A stretch of 64,000 nt of DNA from contig OZ242375.1 in assembly GCA_965209025.1 (NCBI GenBank), forward strand, positions 258,302-322,301, given 5' to 3'. The position numbers were made by a program, and so were the translations under genes. Position 1 is the first letter of the stretch; each line of letters opens with the position of its first letter. The notes under the pieces were generated by a model. It was given only the letters and a program-made list of their open reading frames with translations, searched no databases and had not been told where the DNA came from. Source of the DNA: Acidimicrobiia bacterium (GTDB lineage Bacteria > Actinomycetota > Acidimicrobiia > Spongiisociales > ZC4RG35). Shown here in pieces: positions 1,139 through 34,471 of the stretch.

Positions 1139-1161
1139 GGTCGGCGGATTCTCAGCTGCCT

Positions 1162-2433
1162 TTAGGAGAGTTTCCTCTCGGTCCGACCCACATAGACCTG
1201 CCGGGGTCGAAAGATGCGCCCCTTGGGATCGGACGCCATCTCCCTCCAGTGGGACAACCATCCCGGCAACCGGCCTATCGCGAACAGCACCGTGAACATC
1301 GCGGTCGGGAACCCCAGTGCCCGGTACAAAAACCCCGAGTAGAAGTCGACGTTGGGGTAGAGGCGCCGCTTTGCGAAGTACTCATCGGCCAACGCCGCAG
1401 CCTCCAAGTCCTTGGCAAGCTGCAGCAGGGGGTCGTCCTTGCCCAACCGGGACAACACCTCCCCGGCTGTCGCCTTGATGATTCTGGCTCTGGGGTCGAA
1501 GTTGCGATACACCCGGTGCCCGAAACCCATCAACCGGAACGGATCGGAGCGGTCCTTGGCGCGGTGCAGGGCCTTCTCGATGTCTCCCCCCTCGGATTGG
1601 ATCTCCTCCAGCATCCCCAGCACCGCCCGGTTGGCTCCTCCGTGGAGCGGTCCGGAGAGGGCGCTGATCCCCGCGGCGATCGACGAGAAAATGCTGGCCC
1701 CGCCCGAGCCCACCAGCCGCACCGCCGATGAAGAACAGTTCTGACCATGGTCGATGTGGAGGATCTGCAGCAAGTCCAACACAGCCACCTCTTCGGGGTC
1801 GGGAAGGGGGGACGAGTCGGATTCCGCCAGGGCGGTGTGGAAGAAACGGGAGGTGTAGGGAAGGTCTTCTCTGACTCTTATGGGTCCCAGTCCCAGCAGG
1901 CGGCGGTTGATGAGCGCGGCCAGCGTGGGAATGTCGGCCAGAAGGATCCGGACCGCCTCTTCGACGGCCTCCGGTCTGCTGGACTGTGAGAACTCCGGGT
2001 GGAGTCCGGCCATGGCCAGGACGCCGGCCGCCAGGGATGCCATCGGATCGCTGGTGGCGGGGAAGGTATCGAGAAAGTCGTCCATGTAGGGTCGGTCGAC
2101 GGCGTAGCGACCGATCTCCTCCTCGAACCGGCCGATGTCGTGGCGGGCGGGAAGGTCCTCATACAGCAACAGCCAGGCAGCCTCCAGGAAGCTGACCCGG
2201 CCGGCCAACTCCTCTATCGGATAGCCGCGGTAGCTCAAGGCTCCGTTCTCGCCGTCCACATAGCTGACGGCGCTGGGATTCTCCGAACTGTTGGCAAAGC
2301 CCCGGTCAACGGTGATAACCCCCAGGTCGGAGCGAAGACGGGAGATGTCAAGCCCCCGATCGCCGCGCGTGGGCTCTACCAGGGGCAACTCCAGCTCGCG
2401 GTCCCCGAGCAGGATTCTTGCATCATCACCCAT
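1162..2433 (-). CDS. gltA: Citrate synthase
   Basis: Motifs LSYRGYPIEELA, GFGHRVYRNFDPRA and NVDFYSGFLYRALGFP are typical of type II citrate synthase. 423 aa. Confidence 0.88.
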   Translation of the reverse strand: MGDDARILLGDRELELPLVEPTRGDRGLDISRLRSDLGVITVDRGFANSSENPSAVSYVDGENGALSYRGYPIEELAGRVSFLEAAWLLLYEDLPARHDIGRFEEEIGRYAVDRPYMDDFLDTFPATSDPMASLAAGVLAMAGLHPEFSQSSRPEAVEEAVRILLADIPTLAALINRRLLGLGPIRVREDLPYTSRFFHTALAESDSSPLPDPEEVAVLDLLQILHIDHGQNCSSSAVRLVGSGGASIFSSIAAGISALSGPLHGGANRAVLGMLEEIQSEGGDIEKALHRAKDRSDPFRLMGFGHRVYRNFDPRARIIKATAGEVLSRLGKDDPLLQLAKDLEAAALADEYFAKRRLYPNVDFYSGFLYRALGFPTAMFTVLFAIGRLPGWLSHWREMASDPKGRIFRPRQVYVGRTERKLS

Positions 2434-2437
2434 GCGC

Positions 2438-6104: not shown

Positions 6105-7148
6105 ATGAGGGTCTGCCTGGTCTCACCGTATGACCTGACCCAGGACGGGGGTGTCCAAATGCAGGTGCTGGGCCTGGCAGCATGGCTGACGGGCCAGGGC
6201 GACGAGGTGCGGGTTGTCGCTCCTCGCCTGCCCGGGGACTCCCAAGGGGTGGAGGTGGGAAGGGTGGTGCGAGTCCGGGCCAACCGGTCGGTGGCGCCCA
6301 TCTGCCTGTCGCCGACAGTCTCCGTCCGGATGAAGGAGACCCTCGGCTGGGGTGAGGTGGCGCACATTCACGAGCCGCTCATGCCCATGGTGGGGTTGGC
6401 GGCGTTGCGGACTCGGGGTCCCAAGGTGGCCACCTTCCACGCCGACCCCCCGGGATGGGTGAGCCGGCTCTACCGCGGTCTGCATCCCTGGGTGCGCTCC
6501 CTCAAAGCGCCCCGGACCCTGGTTACCGCGGTCAGCCGTCAGGCGGCGGTGGCCCTGCCCTCCGGGTGGAAACCCGAGGAGATCGTTCCCAACGGAGTGG
6601 AGACGGCCATCGGTGGGGCGGGGGCCGAACGTAGGAGGGGGAGGGTGGTGTTCCTGGGCCGGGACGAGCCGCGCAAGGGTCTGGGCGTCTTGCTGGAAGC
6701 CTGGCCGCGGATCAGGAGTCGCCATCCCCATGCGGAGTTGGTGGTGATGGGCGCCGAGCGCCCGGATCCGCCCGAGGGCGCCGTCTTCCTGGGGAGGGTG
6801 GACACCGACGTCAAGATACGGACGCTGCGGTCGGCCGAGGTCTATGTCGCCCCCAACCTGGGAGGGGAGAGCTTCGGGATAGTGCTGGTTGAGGCGATGG
6901 CGGCAGGTTGCGCGGTAATCGCCTCCGACCTGGCGTCCTTCCGGGATGTCGCCGGCTCTGCGGCCAGGTATTTCACGCCTGGCAGCGTCGATGGGATGGT
7001 GGAACAGGTCCACCGGGTCCTGGAGAGTCCCCCGGTCACGGCTCGGCTCTCGGAGGCGGGCCCGTTGCGGGCGGACAGGTATTCCTGGGACAGGGTGGGT
7101 CCGGCCTACCGGGATTGCTACGAAAGGGTGATTCGCCGGAGCGCATGA
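6105..7148 (+). CDS. pimA: GT4 glycosyltransferase, phosphatidylinositol alpha-mannosyltransferase-like
   Basis: N-terminus MRVCLVSPYDLTQDGGVQ and C-terminal GT4 E(x7)E region (ESFGIVLVEAMAAG). Synteny with pgsA and the acyltransferase. Confidence 0.78.
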   Translation: MRVCLVSPYDLTQDGGVQMQVLGLAAWLTGQGDEVRVVAPRLPGDSQGVEVGRVVRVRANRSVAPICLSPTVSVRMKETLGWGEVAHIHEPLMPMVGLAALRTRGPKVATFHADPPGWVSRLYRGLHPWVRSLKAPRTLVTAVSRQAAVALPSGWKPEEIVPNGVETAIGGAGAERRRGRVVFLGRDEPRKGLGVLLEAWPRIRSRHPHAELVVMGAERPDPPEGAVFLGRVDTDVKIRTLRSAEVYVAPNLGGESFGIVLVEAMAAGCAVIASDLASFRDVAGSAARYFTPGSVDGMVEQVHRVLESPPVTARLSEAGPLRADRYSWDRVGPAYRDCYERVIRRSA

Positions 7149-7201
7149 CGTCGGAACCCTCCGGGTAAACCGTCGCTATTGCGGCCCGCCCGACCGCAAA
7201 G

Positions 7202-8119
7202 ATGGCTACGATTAGGGGGATGGACCAGAGCAACGGTATGAAGACCGGCACGGAGTTGGTCAAGCGGGGACTTGCCGACATGCTGAAGGGAGGCGTGATC
7301 ATGGACGTGGTCGACGCCGACCAAGCTCGGATCGCCGAGGATGCGGGGGCGGTGGCGGTGATGGCATTGGAGCGGGTCCCGGCCGACATCCGCAAGGACG
7401 GAGGAGTGGCGCGGATGGCCAATCCCGCCAAGGTGACCGAGATCATGGGGGCTGTGACCATACCGGTGATGGCCAAGTGCCGGATCGGGCACTTCCTCGA
7501 GGCCCGTGTCCTGGAGGATTTGGGGGTGGATTACATAGACGAGTCAGAGGTGCTCACCCCCGCCGACGAGGAGTTCCACGTGGACAAGTGGCCGTTCACC
7601 ACTCCCTTCGTCTGTGGCGCCCGTGACCTGGGGGAGGGGCTGCGACGGCTGTCGGAGGGCGCCGCCATGATCCGTACCAAGGGAGAAGCCGGTACCGGCA
7701 ACGTGGTGGAAGCGGTGCGGCACATTCGGGCCATCACCAGCCAGATGGAGGCGCTGGCCGACATGACCGACGAAGAGCAGGCACACCAGGCCGAGATGAT
7801 GAGGGTCTCTCCCGAACTGGTCAAGGAGGTGGCTTCCCTGGGTCGCCTGCCGGTGGTCAATTTCGCGGCGGGAGGGATCGCCACGCCCTCCGATGCGGCC
7901 CTGATGATGGCCCTCGGCTGTGACGGGGTGTTCGTGGGCAGCGGCATTTTCAAGAGCTCCCAACCCGCCGCCTACGCCGCAGCAATCGTGGAGGCGACTA
8001 CTTACTGGGACAACCCCGGGGTAATCGCCAAGGTGTCGCGGGGTCTGGGAGAGCCCATGCGGGGCAAAGAGATAGGAACCCTGGAACCAGCTGAGCGTTT
8101 GGCCGCCCGGGGTTGGTGA
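7202..8119 (+). CDS. pdxS: Pyridoxal 5'-phosphate synthase subunit PdxS
   Basis: KGGVIMDVV...AKCRIGHF...[14 protein letters not shown] motifs. Start could be ATG 7202 or 7220 (AGGGGG immediately upstream of 7220). Confidence 0.9.
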
Positions 8120-8694
8120 CCGTGCCGCCCACCATCGGGGTGTTGGCGCTCCAGGGAGACGTGCGGGAGCACCTTGTCGCTCTTGAGCGTCTGGGCGTCC
8201 CGACCCGATCGGTGCGTCTGCCGGAGGACCTGACGGGACTGGACGGGTTGGTCATTCCGGGCGGCGAGTCCACCACCATCGGCCGCCTCGCCGAACGGTT
8301 CGGGCTACTACACCCCCTGCGCGCCGCCCTGGCCGACGGGCTTCCCACCCTGGCCACCTGCGCGGGGATGATTCTGGTGGCAGGCGCCATCGTGGAGGGG
8401 GACCAGCCACTGCTGGGAGCGCTGGACGTGGTGGTGCGCCGCAACGCCTTCGGACGACAGAACGAGTCCTTCGAGATGGACCTGGACGTAAAGGGTCTGG
8501 ACCGGCCTTTTCACGGTGTGTTCATCCGGGCGCCCTGGGTGGAGAAGGTGGGGAGCGACGTCGAGGTGCTGGCCCGGATCGGGGACCGCCCGGTGATGGT
8601 CAGGTCCGGCCGGATTGTCGCCACGTCATTTCATCCGGAGTTGACCGACGACTCCCGCATCCACCGGCTGTGGATGGAAGACACAGGGGGCTAG
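8113..8694 (+). CDS. pdxT: Pyridoxal 5'-phosphate synthase glutaminase subunit PdxT
   Basis: [13 protein letters not shown], catalytic Cys in LATCAGMIL, His/Glu in SFHPEL. Overlaps the pdxS stop. Confidence 0.9.
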
Positions 8695-23927: not shown

Positions 23928-24700
23928 CGGCTTTGGGAATAGACATAGGAGGATCGGGAGTCAAAGGCAATCTGGTGGACACCGCCACCGGAGCGCTCCT
24001 GTCCGAACGCTTTCGCATACCCACTCCCCGCTCGGGGTCCACCGAGGCGGTGGGCGAGGTGGTGGCGGAGATAGCCGAGCACTTCCGGCAAGAGAGCGGG
24101 CATGAAACCCTCCCGGTGGGGTGCGGGTTTCCCGGGGTGATCAGATCGGGCGTCGTAAGCGCCGCCACCCACCTGGACAAGGCCTGGCTGGGCGCCGACG
24201 TGGTCGCCATTCTCTCCGGGGCGGTCGGGAGCCCGGTCACCGTTCTCAACGATGCGGATGCGGCCGGGGTGGCCGAGATCACCTTCGGGTCGGCCAAGGA
24301 TCGGAGCGGCACGATCCTGATGATCACCCTCGGCACCGGGATAGGGAGCGGGATGTTCCGGGACGGCCGGCTGGTCCCCAATTTCGAACTGGGCATGCTG
24401 GAACTGGGCGGTCATCACCCCATCGAGGACCGGGTGGCCTACCGCGTATTCAAGCAGGGGGAGTTGAGTTGGAAGAAGTGGGCCAGACGGTTGAACCGCT
24501 ACCTACGGCATGTCAACGCGCTCTTCGCTCCGGACCTGATAGTTCTCGGGGGAGGAGGGGTGAACAAGTGGTCCCGCTTCGGCCACCGCCTGGATGTGCC
24601 GGTGGATGTGGCCCCCGCCCACTTCGGGAACCATGCCGGCATCGTCGGCGCCGCCCTGGCCGCGGTGAACCCGGGCGCCCTGATGGGGGATCCCGCCTAA
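23924..24700 (+). CDS. ppgK: ROK-family / polyphosphate glucokinase
   Basis: MTALGIDIGGSGVK sugar-kinase N-terminus and ROK-like core. GTG overlaps the rarA stop. Confidence 0.75.
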   Translation: MTALGIDIGGSGVKGNLVDTATGALLSERFRIPTPRSGSTEAVGEVVAEIAEHFRQESGHETLPVGCGFPGVIRSGVVSAATHLDKAWLGADVVAILSGAVGSPVTVLNDADAAGVAEITFGSAKDRSGTILMITLGTGIGSGMFRDGRLVPNFELGMLELGGHHPIEDRVAYRVFKQGELSWKKWARRLNRYLRHVNALFAPDLIVLGGGGVNKWSRFGHRLDVPVDVAPAHFGNHAGIVGAALAAVNPGALMGDPA

Positions 24701-24858
24701 GAGGACCTGGCCCGGTGTGGGTAGGGCTGGCGTACCAGTCATCACGTCCTTGTCCGTTTGGATCACCGGTTCTGAAACACTTTGGATACGGGTCTCCCCA
24801 CCACTCCAGAGGCTTTGGTTGGTCTCCGGGGTCGGTGCTGGGGTTCCGATCCGTGTGT

Positions 24859-25962
24859 TTAGCTGCTGTGGATGGGGGTGGGTAGGGTTTGGTCACCGCA
24901 GTACAGGGTTTGGTCACCGCGGTACGGGGATTGGGGTGGTTCGTTTGTCCAGTATTGGGCCGATGATCCTTTGGGGTAGTCCGCTCCGGGAATGGGTGGT
25001 GGTAACACGGTGGAGTTCTCCGAGCCATCGTAGACCGCACCTACCGCCTTGTAGTAGGTGCGGAGTTCATTGGCGTCGGTGACCAGCAACGGCAGTTTGC
25101 CTATCCCGATCCTCCCTCCGGTGACCGCGGTGCGGTTCTCTGCCGCCGCGCGTACTTGCTGTTCCAACTCGGCGAGGGGCATATTCAACCGGGCACGCGC
25201 TTCCGGAGTCCGAGCCAACCGTATGTTCTGGGAGACAGCTTTGGGTGGGTTGTCATCAGTTTTCTGCACAAACCACACGGCCAGTTCCAACTCGGTGGCC
25301 CAGGCTTCCACGGTGAGAGTGGGGATTCCAAGAAACAGTACGAGTTCTTTTCCTGCGTAGACTTCCTCGGCTCTGCTGGCCGGGAAATTCAACGTGTTGT
25401 CCACCCATGCATCCTCGCCTCCCTGCTGTTCTATAAAGCATTCCCGATACCCTCCATCGGTGGAAAGAAGTAACGACCGGCGATGTAGCGACGCGGTGAG
25501 GACCGGGGGTCCTTCTCCCACCAGATACTCATTTACCCTGACCTCCGCAAAACAATGCACATGCACGTGAGGCCTAGCAATTGAGTGGACACTCTCGCTT
25601 GTAAAGTTCGGCGGTTTGGCCTGGTAGTCGTCACACCGGAACGTGTCCGGTCGCACCGTTCCTCGGATAACTATATGCGGCATCAGTAGAGGTGATGTAA
25701 GATGCACCGGGCCCCATCCCCCTAGTAGTAGTTCGTTGGGGGTTGGCAGAGGATCCGGGAGACGTTCAGACAATTTCAACGAACTATCCGGTTCCCCTGG
25801 TTCGCAGGGATCTATGTCGCTTCCATCGATAGGAACACAGGGAGGGATCACTTGCTCAAGATGTGATTTCAATGTGGGTGTAGCAGCCGAAAACCAACAA
25901 CCGATTAGCCCCACAGCCAAGACCAGTCCCAGGGTTGCCAGTGTTGTTTTGGTTCTGGTCAT
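24859..25962 (-). CDS. Island paralog 1: secreted (possibly lipo-) protein of an unassigned family, 367 aa
   Basis: Signal peptide MTRTKTTLATLGLVLAVGLIGC. Shares with paralogs 2-4 the conserved blocks IPPC.P..G...DPC, VHCF..VRVNEYL.G.GPP, LFLGIPTLTVEAW and LPLLVTDAN.L..YY.AVGAVYD. C-terminus carries a YRGDQTL/YCGDQTL 7-aa tandem repeat. Confidence 0.7.
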   Translation of the reverse strand: MTRTKTTLATLGLVLAVGLIGCWFSAATPTLKSHLEQVIPPCVPIDGSDIDPCEPGEPDSSLKLSERLPDPLPTPNELLLGGWGPVHLTSPLLMPHIVIRGTVRPDTFRCDDYQAKPPNFTSESVHSIARPHVHVHCFAEVRVNEYLVGEGPPVLTASLHRRSLLLSTDGGYRECFIEQQGGEDAWVDNTLNFPASRAEEVYAGKELVLFLGIPTLTVEAWATELELAVWFVQKTDDNPPKAVSQNIRLARTPEARARLNMPLAELEQQVRAAAENRTAVTGGRIGIGKLPLLVTDANELRTYYKAVGAVYDGSENSTVLPPPIPGADYPKGSSAQYWTNEPPQSPYRGDQTLYCGDQTLPTPIHSS

Positions 25963-26095
25963 TCTGGTTCTCTTTGGCTTTGGATGGTCTCCTAGGTTCA
26001 GGGGTCTAGGGGTTCCGAGCCGGGTGGTTGGTCGTCGGCTCCGGGTATGGGTGGTGGTTTGGCGGGTGTTAGGGTGGGGTCGTCGTAGACAGCAT
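25921..26095. repeat. Paralog junction cassette, copy 1 (tail-coding, stop, about 40-nt spacer, start, signal-peptide coding)
   Basis: The tctggttctctttg(g/c)ctttggatggtctcc(t/a/g)aggttc(a/g)gg block and flanking sequence recur at the 5' ends of paralogs 1 and 3 and of the fragment. Confidence 0.6.
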
Positions 26096-26189
26096 CCGTT
26101 GGTGGTGAGTTAGCGGGCGCGGTGCCGCAGCTTTGCCCGACAGCAAGGACCAGTCCCAGAGTCACCAGTGTGGTTTTGGTTCTGGTCAT
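25998..26189 (-). pseudogene. Internally deleted remnant of a family member: signal peptide fused directly to the Pro-rich C-terminal tail (63 aa)
   Basis: The N-terminus MTRTKTTLVTLGLVLAVGQSCGTAPANSPPTDAV is near-identical to the paralog 3 N-terminus. It is followed immediately by YDDPTLTPAKPPPIPGADDQPPGSEP, which matches the paralog C-terminal tails. The whole core is missing. Confidence 0.55.
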
Positions 26190-26330
26190 TCTGGTTCTCT
26201 TTGCCTTTGGATGGTCTCCAAGGTTCGGGCGTTTAGGGGTTACGAGCCGGGTGGTTGGTCGTCTTCACCGGGGGTGGGTGGGGTTCCGTTCGGGGTTTCG
26301 TTTTCTCCGGTGTTGGCGGGCGGGCCGGGG
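26131..26330. repeat. Paralog junction cassette, copy 2
   Basis: Near-identical to 25921-26095 and 28655-28960 by eye. Confidence 0.6.
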
Positions 26331-27475
26331 AGTTGATCGGCACCAGGGACCGGTGGGGGTAGGACGGTGGAGTTTTCCGAACCGTCGTAGACCGCTCCGA
26401 CCGCTCCATAAAAGTCCCGCAGTTTGTTGGCGTCGGTTACCAGCATCGGAAGATCAGATGCCATCCCGATCCGCCCTCCGGTGACGGCAACACGGTTAGT
26501 GGCTGCCGCTTTCACTTGTCGTTCTAGTTCTGCCAATGTCAGGTTCATCCGGGCACGCTGCTCAGAAGTACGCGCCAGCCTTATGTTCCGTTCAACAACT
26601 CTCGGCGGGTTATTACCAGTTTGCTGCACAAACCACACGGCCATTAGCAACTCCGTCTCCCATGCTTCCACAGTGAGCGTGGGGATTCCAAGAAACAGCA
26701 CAAGTTCTTTACCTTCGTAAACCGCGCCTGTTCGGCGAGCAGGAAAGTCGAGGGCATTGTCCACCCATTGGTCCTCGCCCCCGTGCAGAGCTATAAACGA
26801 ATCACGATAGCCTCCATCAGTGGGAAGGTGTACTATTTCCCGGTGCAGCGACACAGTCAATTCTGGAGGTCCTGTCCCTACCAGATACTCGCTTACACGG
26901 ATTTGAGCGAAACAATGAACATGGACGATTAAGTCATGATATGGATGCAGTTCGGCAGCGTAGCTCGCGACCTTTAGTGGATAGTCTTCGCATCTGGTTG
27001 TACCAGGTTGCGGTGTGCCTCTGATGACTACGTGCGGCAGCAACAACGGGTCCGCAGTGCCTTGGGGACTCCACTTTCCTAATAGCAGGTCAGCCATGGT
27101 TGGCAGTGGGTCTGGCAGACCCTCAGAGGAGCCTTCCGCGGCGGCTTTCCGGACTCTGGTCGGTTCTCCAGGAACGCAGGGATCAGCGTCGCTGCCGTCT
27201 ATGGGTGTGCAGGGGGGAATGACTTCTTCCAGATATGCAGGAGGTGTTTCTTCTCGAGCCTGACCTGCCGTCACGTCTCTATAAGTATTGGCATCTTGCG
27301 TTCGCGCAGTTGTGGCTGTTGGTTCTTGAAGTGTGGTTACAGGGGTGGGAACGGTTACGTCGGGTTGGTCCGTGGTAGGTCCTGTTCCTGTAGCGGTTGT
27401 TTTGCAGGCTTGGATAAAAACCAGTGTTGCCAATAGCCACGGCAACGCTCTCCTCTTAGTTGTTGCACCTTTCAT
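26240..27475 (-). CDS. Island paralog 2: secreted protein of the same family, about 411 aa
   Basis: Start chosen at ATG 27475 (AGGAAG SD with 6-nt spacer). ATG 27493 is the alternative. Signal peptide ...LPWLLATLVFIQAC, Thr/Pro linker, conserved family blocks. Pro-rich tail PPPVPGADQLPGPPANTGENETPNGTPPTPGEDDQPPGS. Confidence 0.7.
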   Translation of the reverse strand: MKGATTKRRALPWLLATLVFIQACKTTATGTGPTTDQPDVTVPTPVTTLQEPTATTARTQDANTYRDVTAGQAREETPPAYLEEVIPPCTPIDGSDADPCVPGEPTRVRKAAAEGSSEGLPDPLPTMADLLLGKWSPQGTADPLLLPHVVIRGTPQPGTTRCEDYPLKVASYAAELHPYHDLIVHVHCFAQIRVSEYLVGTGPPELTVSLHREIVHLPTDGGYRDSFIALHGGEDQWVDNALDFPARRTGAVYEGKELVLFLGIPTLTVEAWETELLMAVWFVQQTGNNPPRVVERNIRLARTSEQRARMNLTLAELERQVKAAATNRVAVTGGRIGMASDLPMLVTDANKLRDFYGAVGAVYDGSENSTVLPPPVPGADQLPGPPANTGENETPNGTPPTPGEDDQPPGS

Positions 27476-27568
27476 GGCATTCTTCCTTGTCATCCGTTTA
27501 TCCGCAATGGATGAATCTTGGGCTCTACCTTCCCATGGGGTTCGAGGAGGCCGAAGGATGGCGGTGTG

Positions 27569-28723
27569 TCAGGGTGTGGGAGGAGGTGTTTGGTCATCGT
27601 CTCCGGGCACAGGGGGTTGGTTGTCATCTCCGGGGGTGGGTGGGGTTCCGTTCGGGGTCTCTTCTTCGCCGGTGTTGGCTGGTGGTTCTTCGGGGTCTTC
27701 TGCTCCGGGTACGGGTGGTGGTTTGGCGGGTGTTTGGGCGGGGTCGTCGTAGACGGCGCCGATGGCTCCGTAGTAGGTACTGAGCTGGTTGGCGTCGGTG
27801 ATGAGCAGGGGCAGGTTGGGGTCGGTTCCGACCCGTCCGCCGGTGTTCGCCTTTCGGGTGGCGTCCGCTTGGGTGATCTTGGTTCGGAAGTCGGTTAAGG
27901 AGAAGTCCAATAGTGCTAGGTTTTCGGGTGTCTGGGGGTATTCGTGTTTGTCGGGGGCGATCACCCTTATTACACCGCCTACTTGCTGCACATCCCAGAA
28001 AAACGTCATTTCCCAAGCTTCCATCCGAACGCTGAAGCCAGCGGAGAGGAACAGGACTCCTTCGACACCTTCGTATGTGTCGATGACCTGTTCGTCCAGG
28101 GGCTGGGAGTGTCCAGGATTCGACGGCCAATTCAAACCTGTGATGACGCTCAGTTGGGGAGGTCCTGTTCCCAGCAGGTATTCGTTCACCCGCACATCGG
28201 AGAAACAAAAGAGATATTCCCATCCTGCAAAAGCCTTTCGGATGCGTTCCTCCAAATACGTTGGCAGCGTTGTGGCGTGGATCTCACACCTGGTTGTGTC
28301 TGGCAGTACAGTGCCACGGATAAGAATGTGCGTGGAGCTAGTAGCTACCAGGTCCCAGTAGTTCAAGACTTCGTGGAGTGGGGGAGCGTGAACCTTTGTT
28401 TCTTCTGATAGCATTACACCGTCAGCGGGTTCGATGGAGGGTGGTGGTCCGGTTGCGCATGGGTCTCGGTTGGTTCCGGCCACCGGGGTGCACGGAGGAA
28501 TCGTTTCCTCCAGGTATGTGAGATTCGCCTCTTCTAGTGCAGGTGCGGTAGTTGTAGGGGTAGCCGTGGTAGTTGTGGTTGACCGTGGCTCTTTAGAGGG
28601 ACTGTGAGTGGTGGTTGTGACAACAGCATCCGTTGGTGGTGAGTTAGCGGGCGCGGTGCCGCAGCTTTGTCCGACAACAAGGACCAGTCCCAGAGTCACC
28701 AGTGTGGTTCTTGTTCTGGTCAT
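27569..28723 (-). CDS. Island paralog 3: secreted protein of the same family, about 384 aa
   Basis: Start at ATG 28723 (MTRTRTTLVTLGLVLVVGQSCG). The ORF-track start at 28825 would overlap the paralog 4 tail. Thr-rich linker, conserved blocks, Pro-rich tail. Confidence 0.7.
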   Translation of the reverse strand: MTRTRTTLVTLGLVLVVGQSCGTAPANSPPTDAVVTTTTHSPSKEPRSTTTTTATPTTTAPALEEANLTYLEETIPPCTPVAGTNRDPCATGPPPSIEPADGVMLSEETKVHAPPLHEVLNYWDLVATSSTHILIRGTVLPDTTRCEIHATTLPTYLEERIRKAFAGWEYLFCFSDVRVNEYLLGTGPPQLSVITGLNWPSNPGHSQPLDEQVIDTYEGVEGVLFLSAGFSVRMEAWEMTFFWDVQQVGGVIRVIAPDKHEYPQTPENLALLDFSLTDFRTKITQADATRKANTGGRVGTDPNLPLLITDANQLSTYYGAIGAVYDDPAQTPAKPPPVPGAEDPEEPPANTGEEETPNGTPPTPGDDNQPPVPGDDDQTPPPTP

Positions 28724-28960
28724 TCTGGTTCTCTTTGCCTTTGGATGGTCTCCGAGGTTCGGGCGTTTAGGGTTCCGAGCCGGGTGGTTCATCATCGTCA
28801 CCGGGGACGGGTGGGGTTTGATCATCGCCGGGGGTGGGTGGGGTTCCGTTCGGAGTCTCGTTTTCGCCGGTGTTGGCGGGTGGGTTTTCGGGGTCTTCGG
28901 CTCCGGGGACTGGTGGTGGTTTGGCGGGTGTTTGGGTGGGGTCGTCGTAGACGGCGCCGA
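28655..28960. repeat. Paralog junction cassette, copy 3 (paralog 4 tail / paralog 3 start)
   Basis: Same conserved block. The Pro-rich tail coding sequence of paralog 3 (27590-27760) is also shared. Confidence 0.6.
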
Positions 28961-29939
28961 TGGCTCCGTAGTGGGTACTGAGTTTGTTGGCGTCGGTGAT
29001 CAGCAGGGGCAGGTTTGGGTCGGTGCCGACCCGCCCTCCGGTGTTCGCCGTTCGGGTGGCTGCTGCTTGGGTGATCTTGGTCCGGAAGTCTTCAAGGGTG
29101 TTGTCCAACAGTGCAAGGTTCTCTGTTGTTTGGGGGTATTCGTGTTTGTCGGGAGCGATCACCCTTGTTACACCGCCGACTTGCTGCACGTCCCAGAAGT
29201 ACACCATTTCCCAGGCTTCAAGTTGAAGGTTGAAACCCGTGGAGAGAAAGAGGATCCCTTCGACGCCCTCGTATGTGTCGATGACCTGTTCGTCCAGAGG
29301 CGGCCCCAGACGGTACTCAGGACCCAGCGGCCGATCCCAATTCGTAATCACGCTCAGTTGGGGAGGTCCTGTTCCCAGCAGGTACTCGTTTACCCGCACA
29401 TCGGAGAAACAATAGAGATGCTCCCATCCGGCAAAACGCTTTCGGTCAAAATCATCCCAATACGTTGGCAGAGTTAAGAGGAAGATCTGACACCTGGTCG
29501 TGTCTGGCAGTACAGTGCCCCGCAGAACTATATGAACCGACCTAGCAGGATCCCTGTCTCTGTAATTCAAGACTTCGTGGAGTGGGGGAGCGTAAACCTT
29601 TGCTGCTTCTGATATCATTACACCATCATCGGGCTCGATGGAGGGTGGTGTTCCGGCAGCGCAGGGGTCTCGGTTTGTTCCGGCTACCGGGGTGCATGGA
29701 GGAATCGTTTCCTCTAGATATGCAGCGTTCGCTTCCTCTTTTGCGACCCTTGACGGAGTTGCGGTTGTTGTAGGCGCAGCCGTGATGGTTGTGGTTGGCC
29801 GCAACTCTAATGAAGGGTTGTGAGTGGTGGTCGTGACAACAGCATCCGTTGGCGGTGAGTTAGCGGGTGCGGTGCCGCAGGCTTGCGCGATGACCCATAC
29901 CAAACTTGTGACAACTAGCAGGGTTTTGGGGGTGTTCAT
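28767..29939 (-). CDS. Island paralog 4: secreted protein of the same family, about 390 aa
   Basis: Start at ATG 29939 (MNTPKTLLVVTSLVWVIAQAC, with an AXA-type cleavage site), AAGGA 8 nt upstream, 29 nt after the giant gene's stop. About 80% identical to paralog 3. Confidence 0.7.
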   Translation of the reverse strand: MNTPKTLLVVTSLVWVIAQACGTAPANSPPTDAVVTTTTHNPSLELRPTTTITAAPTTTATPSRVAKEEANAAYLEETIPPCTPVAGTNRDPCAAGTPPSIEPDDGVMISEAAKVYAPPLHEVLNYRDRDPARSVHIVLRGTVLPDTTRCQIFLLTLPTYWDDFDRKRFAGWEHLYCFSDVRVNEYLLGTGPPQLSVITNWDRPLGPEYRLGPPLDEQVIDTYEGVEGILFLSTGFNLQLEAWEMVYFWDVQQVGGVTRVIAPDKHEYPQTTENLALLDNTLEDFRTKITQAAATRTANTGGRVGTDPNLPLLITDANKLSTHYGAIGAVYDDPTQTPAKPPPVPGAEDPENPPANTGENETPNGTPPTPGDDQTPPVPGDDDEPPGSEP

Positions 29940-29968
29940 CTTCTTTGTCCTTTCGTTCTCCCCTGGTG

Positions 29969-32900
29969 TTATGGTGTGTTGTCTGATTGGTAGAGTGCTT
30001 TGAGGGCGACGATGTCCATCGGTTGTGGTGCACATATGCGATTCGTTGTAGGGGCGGTGTCAGTTTTCTTTCTCATGATGCTTTCGTTGGGGTTTGTCGT
30101 GGCGTGTCCCAGACCCCAGATGTGACCCGCTTCGTGAGTGGCAACTTCGAGGCGCAGAGAGCAGTTGTTTCCTCCTGCCCATGTGGCATCCGTGGGTCCT
30201 TTCACGAAAAACATGGCGTATTTGGTGTATCCGCTTACATTGGGATCGAACGGCGGTACGACAGCTAATGCTGTGTCCGAGAGTTTCGGGTAGTACACCT
30301 TTACCTGTGTGCTGGTTTGGAGTGAGACTCTTCTGGTGTCTTCTTCAAGGCAGTTGTCGCCGGATTCTTGGGTGATTACGGATGAGCTGATGTTTCGGCC
30401 GTCTGGTGTGGTGAAGCCTTGCATGGCTGTGGTCCATTTGGTGAATCCTTGTTTGATTTCGTTGATCCATGTTTGGGTCATATCTTTTGTGCATATTTTG
30501 TAGGCGTAGTGGAGGGGTGACAGATCGTGACGGTAGGGTATCCCGGCTACGCTAAACCCGCCGCTGGTTGATGGTTCCTCCGCAGTTGTAAAAACGAGAA
30601 TGGTTTCGCTGGACCAGGGCGATTGGTCTGCTGCGTTGCCGGATCGCACTTGGACGGCGTAAAGGCGGCTGATCCGCAGCCCGGTGATCGCATAAGATGT
30701 GCTGGTGATCTTGTCGGATACCGGGGTCCAGGTGCCGCTGCAGGTCGGGGGATCGGCGCACGTTTTGTATCGGACCTTGTAGTACTCGGCGGTGGTGGCC
30801 GGAGCGTCGGTGGTGGACACGGGGTTCCATGTCATCTTGATCTGGGCTTCGTCGGGTCGTAGATGAACGTGTGCGGTTGGGCTGTGTCCGTTGGCGCGTA
30901 GTCCTGTGGGCGTGGGTGGAGCGCCTGTGACTGTCCAGGTGGTGACGGGTTCGGACCATTGGGATTGGTGGTGTTGGTAGCCGGTGGTGGTGTCGTTGGC
31001 GCGGATGTGGATCCGGTAGTTTCGGCCGATGGTGAGGGTGCTGTGGGTTCCGGTGTTTTTGACTATTTTGACCGTGAACACTCCTTGGGAGTCGGGTGCG
31101 ATTTCCAGTTGGTTTGTGCCGGTGCAGTCGTTCCCGGTGCCGTCTCCTACGCAGTAGGCCTGTTGGGTGGTTACCGTGTCGGGGCAGTCGCTGCCTGTTT
31201 CGACGCAGTATGTGATGTCGTAGCCTTGTGCGTGGGCTACTTGGTTCCATTTGATGTTCAACGCGGGGGTTTGTGGGTGGGCCAGGTTGAACCCGTCGGC
31301 GACTACTCCGGTGGGTTTTGCCAGTAGTAGGGATGTTTCGATGGTGTGGGATCCGAGGTTGGTGGTGGTGGTGCTGGTGCGGCTGATCTCGATCCGGTAG
31401 TCAACGGATCCGGTGGTGAGCCCGGGTGGGTTCCATTCGACGAGGTTGCCGTGCACGGTGGAGGTTTGGGAGGCAAGGTCGGTGGTGGTTCCGACGGTTC
31501 CTGCTGTTATTTCTGCCCAGGTGAGGACGAACGGCACGCTTGAGGAGACCTCGAGTTTGATCTTGTCGGGTGTTACGTCTCTAAGGGTGTATCGCTTGGC
31601 GTAGACGGTTTCGGTGGTGCTGGTGCGATGGACGGCCTTGCAGTCGGTGGTCCAGTCGTGTCTGGTGGTTGTTTGTGGCAGGTCCGTGGTGCAGGCGTCT
31701 GTGGAGGGCGGAACAGTGGTCGTAGTAGTAGTGGTGGTGGTGGTCGTAGTGGTGGTGGTGGTGGAGCGGGTGGTTTGTTTGGTGACGGTTCGTTCGCAGG
31801 TGGGCGGGTTGGTGGTTTTGTTCAGGGTGTATTCGGTTGGGCAGGACCAAACGGGATCGATTGTGGTCGGTCGGGTGGTTTGTTTGGTTACGGTCCTTTT
31901 GCAGGTGGGTGGATCGGTGGTTTCGTCCAAGGTGTAGCCGGTTCCGCAGGACCATTGGGTTTCGGTTGTGGTCGGTTGGGTGGTTTCTCGGGTTACTGGG
32001 CGGGAGCAGGTGGGCGAGAGCCCGGATTCGCCTTCCACACCACCTCCGCTGGCTCCTGATTGGGGACCGATGCCTTTTTGGTATCCGGGCGGGCAGGAAT
32101 AGGTTGTTTGGATGGTGGCGTTGCGCGTGGTTTCTCGGGTGATTGTGCGGGAGCAGGTGGGTGAGAGACCCGATTCACCCTCGACGCCGCCGCTGTTGCC
32201 GGTGGGTCCTGTTTGGCCGCCGATGCCTTTTTGGTATCCGGGGGGACAGGAGAAGGTGGTTTGGGTGGTGGCGTTGCGCGTGGTTTCTCGGGTGATTGTG
32301 CGGGAGCACGTGGGCGAGAGCCCGGATTCGCCTTGGGCGCCACCGTCGCCGCTGCTGCCGGTGGGTCCTGTTTGGCTGCCGAGGCCTTTTTGGTATCCGG
32401 GGGGACAGGTCCAGTCTGTCCGTGATGAAGCGTTGCGGGTGGTGTCGCGAGTGATGGTGCGGGAGCAGGTGGGTGAGAGCCCGGATTCGCCTTCCACGCC
32501 GCCGTCGTCGTTGTTGTTTCCGCTGCTGCCGCCGGCTTGTGATTGGCCGCCGAGGCCTTTTTGGTATCCGTCGGGGCAGGTGAAAGTTGTCCGGATTGAA
32601 GCGGTAAGAGTGGTGGAACCCGACCGCCTGTAAGAACAGATGGACTCGTTTCGGCTGCTGTACGAGTAAGTGGCCGGTGCCGACGGGCACGAATACGATG
32701 TGGTGGCGGTGCGGGTGGTGCTGGTCGACCGCGTGTAAGTACAAGTAGTTCCGCTGCGGCTGCTGTACGTATAGGTGGCCGGCGCCGACGGGCACGAATA
32801 CGATGTGGTGGCGGTGCGGGTGGTGCTGGTCGACCGCGTGTAAGTACAAGTAGTTCCGCTGCGGCTGCTGTACGAATAGGTGGAAGGCGCCGACGGGCAG

Positions 32901-34471
32901 GAGTAGAGGGTGGTGGCGGTGCGGGTGGTGCTGGTCGATCGGGTGTAGGTGCAGGTGGTGCCGCTGCGGCTGCTGTACGAATAGGTGGAAGGCGCCGACG
33001 GGCACGAATATGACGTTCGGGCGGTGCGGGTGGTGGAACCCGACCGCGTGTAATAACACGTCGACCCGACCCGATGACTATACGAAAACGTAGAAGGAGC
33101 ACCGGGGCAGTTATACCCCGCAGTGGGGTGTGCCACAGCCCTGCGGGTAGTGGTCGTGGATCGGGTGTACGTACAGGTGGTGCCGTTTCGGCTGCTGTAG
33201 GAGTAGGTAGATGGCGCCGACGGGCACGAATATGAGGTGGTGGCGGTGCGGGTGGTGGAACCCGACCGCGTGTAATAACAGGTGGAACCACTCCTCCTGC
33301 TATAGGTGAAGGTCCCCAACGAACCGGGACACGAATACGACGTGTTAGCGGTGCGGGTAGTGGAACTCGACCGCGTGTACGTACAAGTGGACCCGCTCCG
33401 GCTGCTGTACGAATACGTAGAAGGAGCAGAGGGGCACGAGTAGGAGGTGTTGGCGGTGCGGGTGGTGGACCCCGACCTCGTGTACGTGCAAGTGGACCCG
33501 CTTCGGCTGCTGTACGAGAACGTGGAAGGCGCAGAAGGGCACGAATACGATGTGGTGGCGGTGCGGGTGGTGCTGGTCGACCGGGTGTAAGTGCAGGTTC
33601 TGCCGCTCCTGCTGCTGTAGGTGTAGGTGGCGGGCGCAGCCGGACACGTGTACACCGTCGTCCCGGTGGCGTCGATCGTCTCGGTGTCCTCATACGTGTA
33701 ATGACAGACAGACCCGTCTCGTCGGACGAACGCCAATCCGTCCTCGGTCGGACACGTGTACACCGTCGTTCCGGTGGCGTCGATCGTCTCGGTGTCCTCG
33801 TAGGTGTAGTGACAGACAGACCCGTCTCGTCGGACGAACGTCAGTCCGTCCTCGGTGGGACAGGTGTACACGGTGGTGCCGGTGGCGTCGATCGTTTCGG
33901 TGTCCTCGTAGGTGTAGTGGCAGACAGACCCGTCCCGCCGAACAAATGTCAGGGTGGCTTCGGTCGGACACGAGTAGGTCGTGGTTCCGGTGGCGTCGAT
34001 GGTTTCTGTGTCCTCGTAGGTGTAGTGGCAGACAGACCCGTCTCGTCGGACGAACGTGTACCCCGCAGGCGACGGACACTCCTCAACGGTCGACGAAGTC
34101 GCTGCTGTGCTTTCGACGCTCTCGTAGGTGTAATGACACGTTGACCCGTCCTTCCGGACCAGCGTGTACCCCGCAGGCGACGGGCACACCTCTTCGGTCG
34201 TGCCCGTGTCAGTAGCAGGTACGCTCTCAACCTCCTCGTAGGTGTAATGACACGTCGAACCGTCCCGCCGGACAAACGTCAGCCCCTCCGGCATCGGGCA
34301 GGCACCGTTGGAACCAGCCTCCAAACTGACCCACCCATTGTCCTCCAGTCCCATCCCGCCGACCGCCAACGGCACAACCGACAACAAAGCCCCCAACGCC
34401 ACAACGGCCACCAGTCCCGACCTTCCCCTCCTCGACCTTCCCCCCCTCGCTCTCCGGTAGGGACTGGCCAT
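29969..34471 (-). CDS. Giant secreted multi-repeat protein (1500 aa) with C-terminal metzincin-type zinc metalloprotease domain
   Basis: ATG 34471 is preceded by AGGAGG with a 5-nt spacer. Arg-rich signal peptide. Three families of Cys-containing tandem repeats, a run of about 17 Thr, beta-rich modules, and HEAGHIWGLGH (encoded at 30104-30136, minus strand) followed by a SIM Met-turn. Confidence 0.85.
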   Translation of the reverse strand: MASPYRRARGGRSRRGRSGLVAVVALGALLSVVPLAVGGMGLEDNGWVSLEAGSNGACPMPEGLTFVRRDGSTCHYTYEEVESVPATDTGTTEEVCPSPAGYTLVRKDGSTCHYTYESVESTAATSSTVEECPSPAGYTFVRRDGSVCHYTYEDTETIDATGTTTYSCPTEATLTFVRRDGSVCHYTYEDTETIDATGTTVYTCPTEDGLTFVRRDGSVCHYTYEDTETIDATGTTVYTCPTEDGLAFVRRDGSVCHYTYEDTETIDATGTTVYTCPAAPATYTYSSRSGRTCTYTRSTSTTRTATTSYSCPSAPSTFSYSSRSGSTCTYTRSGSTTRTANTSYSCPSAPSTYSYSSRSGSTCTYTRSSSTTRTANTSYSCPGSLGTFTYSRRSGSTCYYTRSGSTTRTATTSYSCPSAPSTYSYSSRNGTTCTYTRSTTTTRRAVAHPTAGYNCPGAPSTFSYSHRVGSTCYYTRSGSTTRTARTSYSCPSAPSTYSYSSRSGTTCTYTRSTSTTRTATTLYSCPSAPSTYSYSSRSGTTCTYTRSTSTTRTATTSYSCPSAPATYTYSSRSGTTCTYTRSTSTTRTATTSYSCPSAPATYSYSSRNESICSYRRSGSTTLTASIRTTFTCPDGYQKGLGGQSQAGGSSGNNNDDGGVEGESGLSPTCSRTITRDTTRNASSRTDWTCPPGYQKGLGSQTGPTGSSGDGGAQGESGLSPTCSRTITRETTRNATTQTTFSCPPGYQKGIGGQTGPTGNSGGVEGESGLSPTCSRTITRETTRNATIQTTYSCPPGYQKGIGPQSGASGGGVEGESGLSPTCSRPVTRETTQPTTTETQWSCGTGYTLDETTDPPTCKRTVTKQTTRPTTIDPVWSCPTEYTLNKTTNPPTCERTVTKQTTRSTTTTTTTTTTTTTTTTVPPSTDACTTDLPQTTTRHDWTTDCKAVHRTSTTETVYAKRYTLRDVTPDKIKLEVSSSVPFVLTWAEITAGTVGTTTDLASQTSTVHGNLVEWNPPGLTTGSVDYRIEISRTSTTTTNLGSHTIETSLLLAKPTGVVADGFNLAHPQTPALNIKWNQVAHAQGYDITYCVETGSDCPDTVTTQQAYCVGDGTGNDCTGTNQLEIAPDSQGVFTVKIVKNTGTHSTLTIGRNYRIHIRANDTTTGYQHHQSQWSEPVTTWTVTGAPPTPTGLRANGHSPTAHVHLRPDEAQIKMTWNPVSTTDAPATTAEYYKVRYKTCADPPTCSGTWTPVSDKITSTSYAITGLRISRLYAVQVRSGNAADQSPWSSETILVFTTAEEPSTSGGFSVAGIPYRHDLSPLHYAYKICTKDMTQTWINEIKQGFTKWTTAMQGFTTPDGRNISSSVITQESGDNCLEEDTRRVSLQTSTQVKVYYPKLSDTALAVVPPFDPNVSGYTKYAMFFVKGPTDATWAGGNNCSLRLEVATHEAGHIWGLGHATTNPNESIMRKKTDTAPTTNRICAPQPMDIVALKALYQSDNTP
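31990..32600. repeat. Intragenic tandem repeat family C (about 156 nt / 52 aa, 4 copies)
   Basis: Protein unit: CPPGYQKGIGGQTGPTGNSGGVEGESGLSPTCSRTITRETTRNATIQTTYS. DNA copies are more than 90% identical. Confidence 0.75.
32600..33640. repeat. Intragenic tandem repeat family B (about 105 nt / 35 aa, roughly 10 copies)
   Basis: Protein unit: SYSCPSAPSTYSYSSRSGTTCTYTRSTSTTRTATT. Near-identical DNA copies (the ggtggcggtgcgggtggtgctggtcgaccgcgtgtaagtacaagtagttcc block recurs). Confidence 0.8.
33640..34300. repeat. Intragenic tandem repeat family A (about 108 nt / 36 aa, roughly 8 copies)
   Basis: Protein unit: CPTEDGLTFVRRDGSVCHYTYEDTETIDATGTTVYT. Several copies are nucleotide-identical. Confidence 0.8.

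Follow-up and report, generated by a model that had tools for sequence, protein, structure and literature searches.

The sequence shared by the gene junctions of this tandem lipoprotein array is probably the footprint of repeated non-allelic homologous recombination, by gene conversion and unequal crossing-over, and not a functional element in itself. Within the window, the 64,000-nucleotide stretch of DNA that was analyzed, four paralogous lipoprotein genes and a 63-codon remnant are arranged head to tail on the minus strand, between positions 24859 and 29939. The genes are adjacent and share the same orientation, their order of transcription is D, C, B, R, A, and the intergenic spacers measure 35-75 nt. 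A cassette made of the end of a tail, the spacer and the signal peptide of the next gene was common to three of the junctions (J1, J3 and J4), and it joins genes whose cores belong to two distinct subfamilies, C/D and A/B.

The array lies downstream of a minus-strand gene (29969-34471) for a secreted, repetitive protein of 1500 aa that carries the metzincin motif HEAGHIWGLGH in its C-terminal region; when this product was compared with Pfam, Peptidase_M10 was hit with an E value of 7e-4, which is below Pfam's cut-off. This gene is a conserved neighbor of the first lipoprotein gene, since the same neighborhood was observed in L002, L012, L013, L014 and L017, and the junction between the protease gene and gene D is orthologous to that in L012. 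Gene D (28767-29939, minus strand), the first one after the metzincin-motif gene, encodes a C/D-type lipoprotein of 390 aa, with an upstream region (AAGG at -13) and a signal peptide that are both its own. Gene C (27569-28723, minus strand) encodes a C/D-type lipoprotein of 384 aa, preceded by a cassette-type spacer and provided with a cassette-type signal peptide. Gene B (26240-27493, minus strand) is of the A/B type, with a tail that is D-like from the PPANTGE codons onward, and its start is probably the second ATG, at 27475, as used by P0010. The remnant R (25998-26189, minus strand) has a C-type head fused at DAV/YDD to a shortened tail, and gene A (24859-25962, minus strand) combines an A/B-type core with a cassette-type head and a decayed tail, and lacks the Thr-rich linker. 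The products of D and B matched database proteins exactly, that of D being identical to P0001; with the starts used here, no exact match for C, A, R or the giant protein was found in the protein collection. The array is flanked by housekeeping genes, which encode HflX, MoaA, RarA and a ROK kinase.

The junctions were delimited, all of them on the minus strand. J1 (28622..28893) runs from the PPANTGE codons at the end of the D tail, through the stop codon (28767-28769) and a 43-nt spacer (28724-28766), to codons 1-34 of C, which comprise the signal peptide and the lipobox and continue to PPTDAV. J3 (26088..26324) contains the hybrid tail of B, which is D-like from about 26324, its stop codon (26240-26242), a 50-nt spacer (26190-26239) and codons 1-34 of R. 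In J4 (25861..26061), the final part of the R tail and its stop codon (25998-26000) are followed by a 35-nt spacer (25963-25997) and by the signal peptide of A, which is of the cassette type. C and B are separated by 75 nt (J2, 27494..27568) that do not form a cassette; recurrence is limited there to the upstream C tail (about 27585-27765). Downstream of A, where no gene follows, a degenerate tail end and the first two thirds of a spacer were detected (J5, 24813..24899); this segment showed 71% identity to 28739-28828 by self-BLASTN and is a fifth, decayed copy of the spacer. No further copy of the spacer and signal-peptide module was found elsewhere in the window.

The recurrence of the cassette described in the initial annotation was reproduced at the same positions by a self-BLASTN dot-plot. 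J1 and J3 were 92.5% identical over 147 columns, and a 150-nt stretch shared by them (26089-26238 and 28623-28772) reached 97%. The description of these copies as almost verbatim repeats holds for this pair and for a 41-mer around the ATG, but not for J4, which was only 80-87% identical to J1 and J3. The individual self-BLASTN alignments gave 87% over 155 nt (25905-26059 against 26132-26285), 84% over 152 nt (25910-26061 against 28671-28820) and 77.5% over 427 nt (26089-26483 against 28623-29043), and the start of the R tail (26030-26093) was 90.6% identical to the tails of C (27694-27757) and D (28892-28955). The 41-mer, GGAGACCATCCAAAGSCAAAGAGAACCAGAATGACCAGAAC, matched exactly three places (28713-28753, 26179-26219 and 25952-25992) and was absent from 100 shuffled sequences; in the 41-nt core so defined (28713..28753, minus strand) one position varies among the three copies. 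The heads of R and C differ at 5 of 102 nt, three of the changes being synonymous and two non-synonymous.

Identity along the aligned paralogs was strongly non-uniform in a sliding-window profile, which excludes uniform divergence across the genes. Between C and A, the spacer and signal peptide were 86-91% identical while the profile of the core ranged from 20 to 60%, and the same core range was obtained for D and B, whose 3' flanks were 92-97% identical. It had also been proposed that the gene cores are far more divergent than the cassettes. This is the case between the subfamilies, where A/B and C/D cores share 47-49% of their nucleotides and are saturated at synonymous sites, but not for C and D, with 82% identity in the core and 83% in the tail. 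Within the heads of these two genes, nucleotide identity was 50% over codons 1-20 and 95% over codons 21-34. Replacement of the C head by a foreign one was considered and dropped, as the signal peptide of D is only marginally closer to the heads of the related array L001 (0.65-0.67) than that of C (0.57-0.62).

The breakpoints between these segments could be located, and recombination tests by maximum chi-square were significant for both A and B. In gene A, the break falls just after the lipobox, at about 25861-25905: upstream of it, 64 sites were C-like and 9 B-like, and downstream the counts were 123 and 282, a difference that was reached in none of 2000 permutations. The spacer and signal peptide of gene A are of the C type, and its core is of the A/B type. 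In gene B, the sequence becomes D-like within the tail, at about 26324, downstream of which 92 informative sites were D-like and 10 A-like (0 of 2000 permutations). A breakpoint test of B that takes A as one parent is confounded by the decay of the A tail, a problem from which the comparison of the 3' flanks is free. For A, for B and for the A/B-type gene of L001, none of the 1000-2000 permutations reached the observed value, and the positions of the breaks differ.

Divergence at synonymous sites followed the same pattern. The dS between the cores of the two subfamilies was above 1.7, i.e., saturated, and that between the tails of D and B was 0.52, a contrast exaggerated by constraints on codons and composition in the Pro/Thr-rich tail, since tail dS was also about twofold lower between orthologs of different genomes (0.43 for the tail and 1.05 for the core when D was compared with L4cd). 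In L001, the tail of the A/B-type gene had a dS of 0.16 and 94% nucleotide identity to that of the last C/D-type gene of the same genome, with cores at 48%, but its identity to the A and B tails was just 65-71%. The within-genome signal in the tails is weaker in the window, where B, C and D share the variant ETPNGTPPTPG.

It could be argued that purifying selection on the signal peptide and the Pro-rich tail as protein generated these similarities, with no need for recombination. The tail motif PPPVPG...TGE...PxPG is indeed conserved in 94 homologs that are about 30% identical overall, with P335 invariant, P336, P337 and P339 conserved in at least 90% of them, and the lipobox Cys nearly invariant. 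However, the non-coding spacers are 94-97% identical, and the synonymous sites of heads and tails are conserved as well; these data contradict selection on the protein alone. Moreover, the signal peptides that serve D and B are quite different, the stop codon occurs at three positions, indicating that the final residues are unconstrained, and the boundaries of identity are sharp, both in the breakpoint tests and in the L016 tract described below. We thus regard this explanation as highly improbable. Conservation of the protein does account for part of the similarity of the tails, and the gene conversion that had been put forward is not strictly confined to the junctions.

The same homogenization of 3' ends was found in three other metagenomic arrays. 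In L015, the last 318 nt were 90% identical and the rest at most 68%, and in L016 about 260 nt were 100% identical, in a tract that starts sharply at the LPPPVPG codons and passes through the stop codon into the spacer, with 72-81% identity upstream of it. Copy number varies among relatives: L012 has one gene, L001 has three of the C/D type and one of the A/B type, and the downstream flank is the same. The presence of both subfamilies in L001 indicates that the split between A/B and C/D cores predates that speciation. A scan of genome contigs with gene C alone confirmed no relative, and a narrower alignment gave usable search patterns. Since the source is apparently metagenome-derived and tandem paralogs are hard to assemble, the repeats might have been collapsed or chimeric products of the assembly. 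This is barely credible, because the copies of the cassette differ by point substitutions and indels and are all embedded in open reading frames that are intact, the products of D and B have exact counterparts in the database, and the same architecture was present in four independent assemblies. The low divergence at synonymous and non-coding sites, the significant breakpoints and the recurrence of the pattern in independent arrays support the suggestion that the mosaic arose by recombination among paralogs.

The other explanation offered in the initial annotation was selection on an RNA or regulatory element embedded in the junction. Such a cis-acting mRNA element could be an unstructured, C/A-rich leader that lacks a Shine-Dalgarno (SD) sequence and serves re-initiation of ribosomes after the upstream stop codon, or a hairpin that hides the AUG. 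In agreement with this, no SD lies at the usual distance from the starts of C, R and A, and the reported absence of a strong SD was confirmed: AAAGG at -18 is all that precedes C and R, no such motif precedes A, and the AAGG of D is matched by one at the same distance, -13, from the second ATG of B. The last 35 nt of the three spacers, whose lengths are 43, 50 and 35 nt in J1, J3 and J4, are identical at 33-34 of 35 positions (94-97%), versus 80-87% for the adjacent signal-peptide codons of A, and a possible stem is predicted in which ACCAGAAUGACCAG pairs with CUGGUGACUCUGG. Hits to promoters and terminators were at chance level and none fell in any junction, which is consistent with one polycistronic transcript. 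In addition, hardly any change was seen in the 41 nt surrounding the start codon, J4 included, in spite of 13-20% divergence in the flanks of that copy. This might point to a constraint on translation initiation, although by our estimate the effect does not reach significance once the number of windows is taken into account.

Nevertheless, most of the evidence went against an element of this kind. Rfam gave no match in the cassette, its sole hit being a chance snoRNA (E value 0.37) elsewhere in the region. The folding z-scores of the three copies were 0.01, -1.62 and -2.53, J1 was no more stable than shuffled sequences, and each copy had a different minimum-energy structure. With alifold, none of 26 predicted pairs was compensatory, the covariation term was +0.89 and two J4 substitutions break pairs, but three copies as similar as these give the analysis little power. 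The 43-nt spacer is absent ahead of D and B, which use other leaders and have their own, mutually different upstream regions and signal peptides. It is also missing from L001, the closest related array, where the spacers are of 9 nt (ACACATCAA) and the 33 extra nt have no homolog, and the junction pattern was not found in JGI metagenome contigs. Finally, the high identity is not limited to the spacer, as it runs about 100 nt into coding sequence, synonymous sites included, and into the remnant gene. Selection on an mRNA element is therefore an unlikely reason for the conservation of the cassette, and no sign of a new regulatory element was obtained.

Recombination within the array could operate as follows. 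Each family member has a lipoprotein signal peptide at its start and a Pro-rich tail, conserved as protein (LPPPVPG..P..PP..TGE..PxPG), at its end. Where such genes are arranged in tandem and the spacers are short, the two ends adjoin and would form a stretch of 150-300 nt similar enough to pair, probably through a RecA-type pathway. Exchange tracts would then begin at the paired ends and run through the stop codon and the spacer into the head of the next gene; junctions would be homogenized while the cores diverge because the tracts start at the conserved gene ends, which may be why the cores escape. At least three events of different ages are probably recorded in the array: an older fusion that put a cassette head onto an A/B-type core and generated gene A; a deletion of a C/D-type core through microhomology, which left the remnant R; and a recent exchange, after which the B tail, its spacer and the R head would have become 93-97% identical to the D tail, its spacer and the C head. 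The direction and order of these events are tentative; a unique series of duplications and deletions was sought, and none could be derived.

Several by-products of recombination were recognized in the array, namely the remnant R, a 27-nt indel in a tail repeat, the three stop positions and the decayed cassette after A. Homology between cassettes had been suggested as the substrate for the deletion that produced R, but the core was lost at the short microhomology GCYGT, in Ala-Val codons, and both cassettes were retained.

Gene conversion and unequal crossing-over in tandem families are known, textbook processes. One example of concerted evolution of tandem paralogs is provided by PE_PGRS pairs of M. 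tuberculosis (PMC1762029, PMC12046097). The array described here shares with that type of evolution the tandem, co-oriented paralogs, tracts of near-identity that cover synonymous and non-coding sites, sharp breakpoints, deletions and chimeras as by-products, and copy numbers that differ among relatives. It differs in that the homogenized tract straddles a gene boundary, from a tail through the spacer to the next signal peptide, and in that it joins two subfamilies with cores saturated at synonymous sites.

The layout also resembles systems of programmed variation, in which the cassettes would be dedicated recombination sites for swapping cores, as in antigenic-variation loci. The leader and the tail are conserved, as opposed to the divergent cores, in which hypervariable patches (50-57% identity in 60-nt windows) are embedded in sequence at 85-100%. 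The dN/dS of the cores is about 0.33-0.40, and the number of copies differs among relatives. In Mycoplasma, the vsp and vlp lipoprotein genes are clustered and have a highly conserved 5' region and signal peptide followed by variable mature regions; these loci vary by site-specific inversion or through phase-variable promoters, and their variable part is made up of internal repeats. In contrast, neither a recombinase, inverted repeats nor a phase-variable tract was seen here: no recombinase or invertase is encoded by the flanking genes, and the inverted repeats found were at chance level, with no meaningful ones among them. All the copies are co-oriented and each has its own start and signal peptide, which is not the arrangement of an expression site with silent copies. 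Integron gene cassettes were rejected as well, for the junctions have no palindrome and no integrase was present among the seven flanking ORFs scanned. A dedicated variation system is, consequently, decidedly improbable.

A similar layout is that of the Borrelia burgdorferi erp, or "upstream homology box", genes, which have a shared upstream region and leader and divergent mature parts that recombine; they occupy allelic positions on cp32 prophage plasmids, and their conserved box has a promoter and an operator (PMC10016077). Both systems thus consist of lipoprotein genes with a conserved upstream region and leader peptide and with divergent, recombining parts for the mature protein. Unlike erp, the genes analyzed here are chromosomal and in tandem, with no detectable promoter in the cassette; their conserved block takes in the tail of the preceding gene and is present at only three of the five starts. 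Recombination anchored at the gene ends is the explanation that we favor.

Regarding the encoded proteins, the lipoproteins have an NTR/TIMP-like fold, of the OB type characteristic of NTR. Scans of A-D against Pfam and NCBIfam returned nothing, a profile search yielded only noise among PDB sequences, and Foldseek found nothing significant in the PDB. As encoded, the proteins begin with a lipidated Cys, after which comes a linker of about 50 residues, and the free N-terminal Cys1 of TIMP is not present; judging from the sequence, the TIMP mechanism of zinc chelation would require proteolytic release of the lipoprotein. A similar gene arrangement is known in Listeria monocytogenes, where Mtz-Tim is composed of a secreted metzincin and a TIMP-like lipoprotein (PMC8235301). 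Both loci have a TIMP/NTR-like lipoprotein gene directly downstream of a metzincin-motif protease gene and without its own promoter, a likeness of arrangement for which no sequence homology is claimed. Here, the protease is giant and repetitive, the lipoprotein gene is amplified and each lipoprotein has a Pro-rich tail; the Listeria pair bears on the genes and not on the cassette. A broader, and doubtful, interpretation is that the cassettes could anchor recombination in a diversity-generating array of NTR/TIMP-fold lipoproteins paired with a matrixin-like protease in sponge-associated Acidimicrobiia, in which cores with hypervariable loops would be exchanged or deleted in interactions with the host or with competitors, and the SD-less spacer would couple translation of the operon.

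Collectively, this locus is a clean, well-bounded case of protein-conserved gene ends that act as homology anchors, keeping tandem junctions uniform while the cores diverge, and giving rise to chimeras, remnants and copy-number changes. A more useful lead comes from the lipoprotein family itself: an unannotated, NTR/TIMP-like family that repeatedly adjoins metzincin-motif proteases and is amplified in apparent sponge-symbiont genomes, and that merits attention in its own right.

The cassette junctions fall within a minus-strand tandem array, transcribed in the order protease-like protein, D, C, B, R and A. The first gene (29969-34471) encodes a 1500-aa repetitive protein with a metzincin motif, HEAGHIWGLGH, at its end and a Peptidase_M10 match that stays under Pfam's cut-off (E 7e-4). 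It is followed by the paralogous lipoprotein genes D (28767-29939), C (27569-28723) and B (26240-27493), the 63-codon remnant R (25998-26189) and gene A (24859-25962), which is convergent with a ROK-family gene. Housekeeping genes flank the array, RarA and ROK on one side and HflX and MoaA on the other. Pfam and NCBIfam scans of A-D gave no match. C and D form one subfamily (77% protein identity), and A and B the other (66% nucleotide identity between cores), with 47-49% nucleotide identity between the cores of the two. D and B correspond exactly to the database proteins P0001 and P0010, from one NCBI contig of 2,607,473 bp. A collection of 15 billion proteins contained D and B of this genome but neither C nor A with the start codons used, which may reflect annotation of these two as pseudogenes or from different starts; the 1500-aa protein with this start codon had no entry either. 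The G+C content of the block at about 24-34 kb was 56-60%, versus 65-67% in the flanks, and the plus strand of this block (~24000-34000) was strongly skewed toward G over C, i.e., the mRNA strand is C/A-rich. The low G+C may point to horizontal acquisition or merely reflect Thr/Pro-rich coding.

The initial annotation had reported that the end of the Pro-rich tail, the stop, the spacer and the signal-peptide codons of the next gene recur as a unit, and self-BLASTN and a repeat finder reproduced its coordinates. By self-BLASTN, the junction of the R tail and A head (J4, 25905-26059) was 87% identical to that of the B tail and R head (J3, 26132-26285) and 84% identical to that of the D tail and C head (J1, 28671-28820). 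The stretch covering J3 and the end of B (26089-26483) aligned with J1 and the end of D (28623-29043) over 427 nt with 77.5% identity, including 150 nt at 97% (26089-26238 versus 28623-28772), and the first part of the R tail was 90.6% identical to the C and D tails. Direct alignments of 147 columns each gave 92.5% for J1-J3, 80% for J1-J4 and 84% for J3-J4. A 41-mer around the ATG occurred three times (0 in 100 shuffles), and the three spacers agreed at 33-34 of their last 35 nt. The sliding-window identity profile was strongly non-uniform, not the uniform divergence that the initial annotation had named as refuting it: C and A shared 86-91% across the spacer and signal peptide, and D and B 92-97% in the 3' flanks, while the core of either pair stood at 20-60%. 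The claim that cores are far more divergent than junctions held between subfamilies but not for C and D, with 83% in the tail and 82% in the core. The leaders and signal peptides of D and B differ from the cassette type, the C-B spacer (27494-27568) is unique and contains no cassette, and downstream of A (24813-24899), the tail end and spacer recur as a fifth, decayed copy. Between C and D (28664-28723 versus 29880-29939), signal-peptide codons 1-20 were 50% identical in nucleotides and the next 14 codons 95%; this sharp change at the lipobox could be another breakpoint or the mark of a very fast-evolving signal peptide.

Between the subfamily cores, dS exceeded 1.7 and was saturated; for the D and B tails, it was 0.52. 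The 34-codon heads of R and C differed at 5 of 102 nt (three synonymous and two non-synonymous changes), and this equal conservation of all site classes indicates that the event was recent and argues against selection. Maximum chi-square tests, also made at the codon level, placed a breakpoint in A just past the lipobox, at ~25861-25905; upstream of it, 64 informative sites were C-like and 9 B-like, and downstream 123 and 282, respectively. In B, the breakpoint was at ~26324, in the PPANTGE codons, and downstream of it 92 informative sites were D-like and 10 A-like; in neither gene did any of 2000 permutations reach the observed value. R, a gene of the C/D type, lost its core at the microhomology GCYGT, with DAV and YDD on either side of the deletion, and its tail, like that of B, shows additional deletions between PPxPG repeats. 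A point change and a 1-nt indel put the stops of the three cassettes at three positions, and the final residues are therefore free of constraint.

Around the ATG, 41 nt are almost invariant, and none of the cassette starts has a Shine-Dalgarno sequence at the normal distance, with AAAGG at -18 before C and R and none before A. The initial annotation was correct on this point; D and B have AAGG at -13. These features would suit an unstructured C/A-rich leader, which may have a role in translation or re-initiation; however, the absence of the cassette leader from D, B and the related arrays contradicts such a role, and it is unnecessary to account for the data. The proposed embedded RNA or regulatory element found no support: Rfam gave no match, the minimum-energy folds of the three junctions had z-scores of 0.0, -1.6 and -2.5 and structures unlike each other, the consensus fold of these three close copies contained no compensatory pairs and lost two pairs to J4 substitutions, and neither a promoter nor a terminator was predicted in any junction.

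Signs of exchange between paralogues were also observed in other genomes. The closest related array, L001, lies on a 166-kb ENA metagenome contig and opens with one A/B-type gene, with three C/D-type genes behind it. Its A/B-type gene has a C/D-type tail; this tail and that of the last gene share 94% nucleotide identity (dS 0.16), versus 48% between cores, and the breakpoint lies at TDANQLS (4 versus 47 informative sites; 0/1000 permutations reached the observed value). The heads of the three C/D-type genes were 94-97% identical, and the cores 79-81% in two of the three pairs. The L001 spacers have only 9 nt (ACACATCAA); their likeness to the window spacers is confined to the first ~10 nt past the stop, and the remaining 33 nt of the window spacer have no counterpart in them. 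In L012, a relative of L001, a single C/D-type gene lies between the protease gene and a downstream flank 98-100% identical to that of L001, so copy number varies between relatives. In a more distant array, L015, two paralogues were 90% identical over their last 318 nt and at most 68% elsewhere. In another, L016, two neighboring genes shared a 100%-identical tract of ~260 nt, which started sharply at the LPPPVPG codons and, past the stop, extended at least 100 nt into the spacer, with 72-81% identity upstream. Both behave like the window and L001 arrays. An assembly artefact was rejected, as the copies differ by substitutions and sit in intact frames, and the same architecture appeared in four independent assemblies.

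In alignments of 28 and 94 homologues, all family members were lipoproteins with a nearly invariant lipobox Cys and four more conserved Cys. At the protein level, the Pro-rich tail is conserved throughout the family as the motif LPPPVPG..P..PP..TGE..PxPG, with P335 invariant and P336, P337 and P339 at least 90% conserved; therefore, part of the tail similarity is ordinary purifying selection. This selection also preserves nucleotide identity sufficient for homologous pairing. We infer that the tail and the adjoining signal-peptide region act as anchors, with exchange tracts spreading over the short spacer. The cores would be exchanged less often, or their exchanges retained less often. Core dN/dS was ~0.33-0.40, and the cores hold hypervariable patches of 50-57% identity amid 85-100%, which suggest localized diversification of surface loops. 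Such patches, scored in 60-nt windows, were seen between close paralogues or orthologues in L001 (10001-13519) and L012 (3462-4622).

Collectively, the cassette is a fresh case of a known process, the concerted evolution of a bacterial paralogue array by gene conversion and unequal crossing-over. The same process has been described for mycobacterial PE_PGRS pairs (PMC1762029, PMC12046097). The layout recalls the Borrelia erp lipoprotein genes, which have a conserved promoter and leader; unlike erp (PMC10016077), the window array is chromosomal and tandem, and its cassette has no promoter and includes the tail of the preceding gene. A programmed variation locus was rejected because there is no recombinase among the flanking genes, there are no meaningful inverted repeats, and no copy lacks a start codon or signal peptide of its own; likewise, neither an integrase among the seven flanking ORFs scanned nor meaningful inverted repeats supported an integron.

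The relatives are MAGs carrying the labels Acidimicrobiia, Ca. Spongiisociaceae or Spongiisocius, and Dehalococcoidia, names that suggest a sponge-symbiont origin of the window. In three of these genomes, insertion-sequence transposases lie within or next to the protease-lipoprotein loci (L002 6377-7570, L017 3383-4375 and L016 11309-12691; one ORF resembling a transposase by eye, plus IS110 and DDE_Tnp_1 types), and the L002 protease gene appears truncated. In L001, an extremely acidic 507-aa protein rich in Asp, Glu and Pro (6992-8515) precedes the array, in the position taken by the protease at other loci, and fragments resembling the repeats of the giant protein lie just upstream of its gene (6408-6914).

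Relative to the NTR/TIMP-like match, generic OB folds scored lower for B and overlapped for C, and Foldseek found nothing significant for the lipoproteins, leaving the predicted NTR/TIMP-like similarity of the family moderate. Gene order is independent support for the TIMP-like reading. A family member lies directly 3' of a large protein with fn3 and Peptidase_M10 matches in the window (29969-34471), L013 (2190-3653), L014 (4283-7840) and L017 (345-2234), and, in L002 (about 7600-7953), of one with the metzincin motif HExxHxxGxxH. The large uncharacterized protein before the L012 member (1-3426, cut by the contig end) has the same terminal residues as the window's protease and is probably the same kind of protein. 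The window protein (29969-34471, minus strand) also contains several families of Cys-containing repeat modules, e.g., CPSPAGYTFVRRDGSVCHYTYE and SYSCPSAPSTYSYSSRSGTTCTYTRS, and a run of ~16 Thr, in addition to its C-terminal metzincin motif. In Listeria, a secreted metzincin is paired with a TIMP-like lipoprotein (Mtz-Tim), which the protease cleaves (PMC8235301), and by analogy the gene pair suggests a protease-partner or protease-inhibitor pair similar to Mtz-Tim. An IPPCTP motif is conserved in the family, e.g., at residues 75-80 of protein C (about 28484-28501), with Cys-Thr-Pro nearly invariant after IPP and reminiscent of the Cys1-Thr2-Cys3 N-terminus of TIMPs; it is pure speculation that a cut in front of this Cys would create an N-terminus like that of TIMPs. 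The cassette itself is of modest interest, and the NTR/TIMP-like fold of the family, together with its protease link, is the more promising lead.
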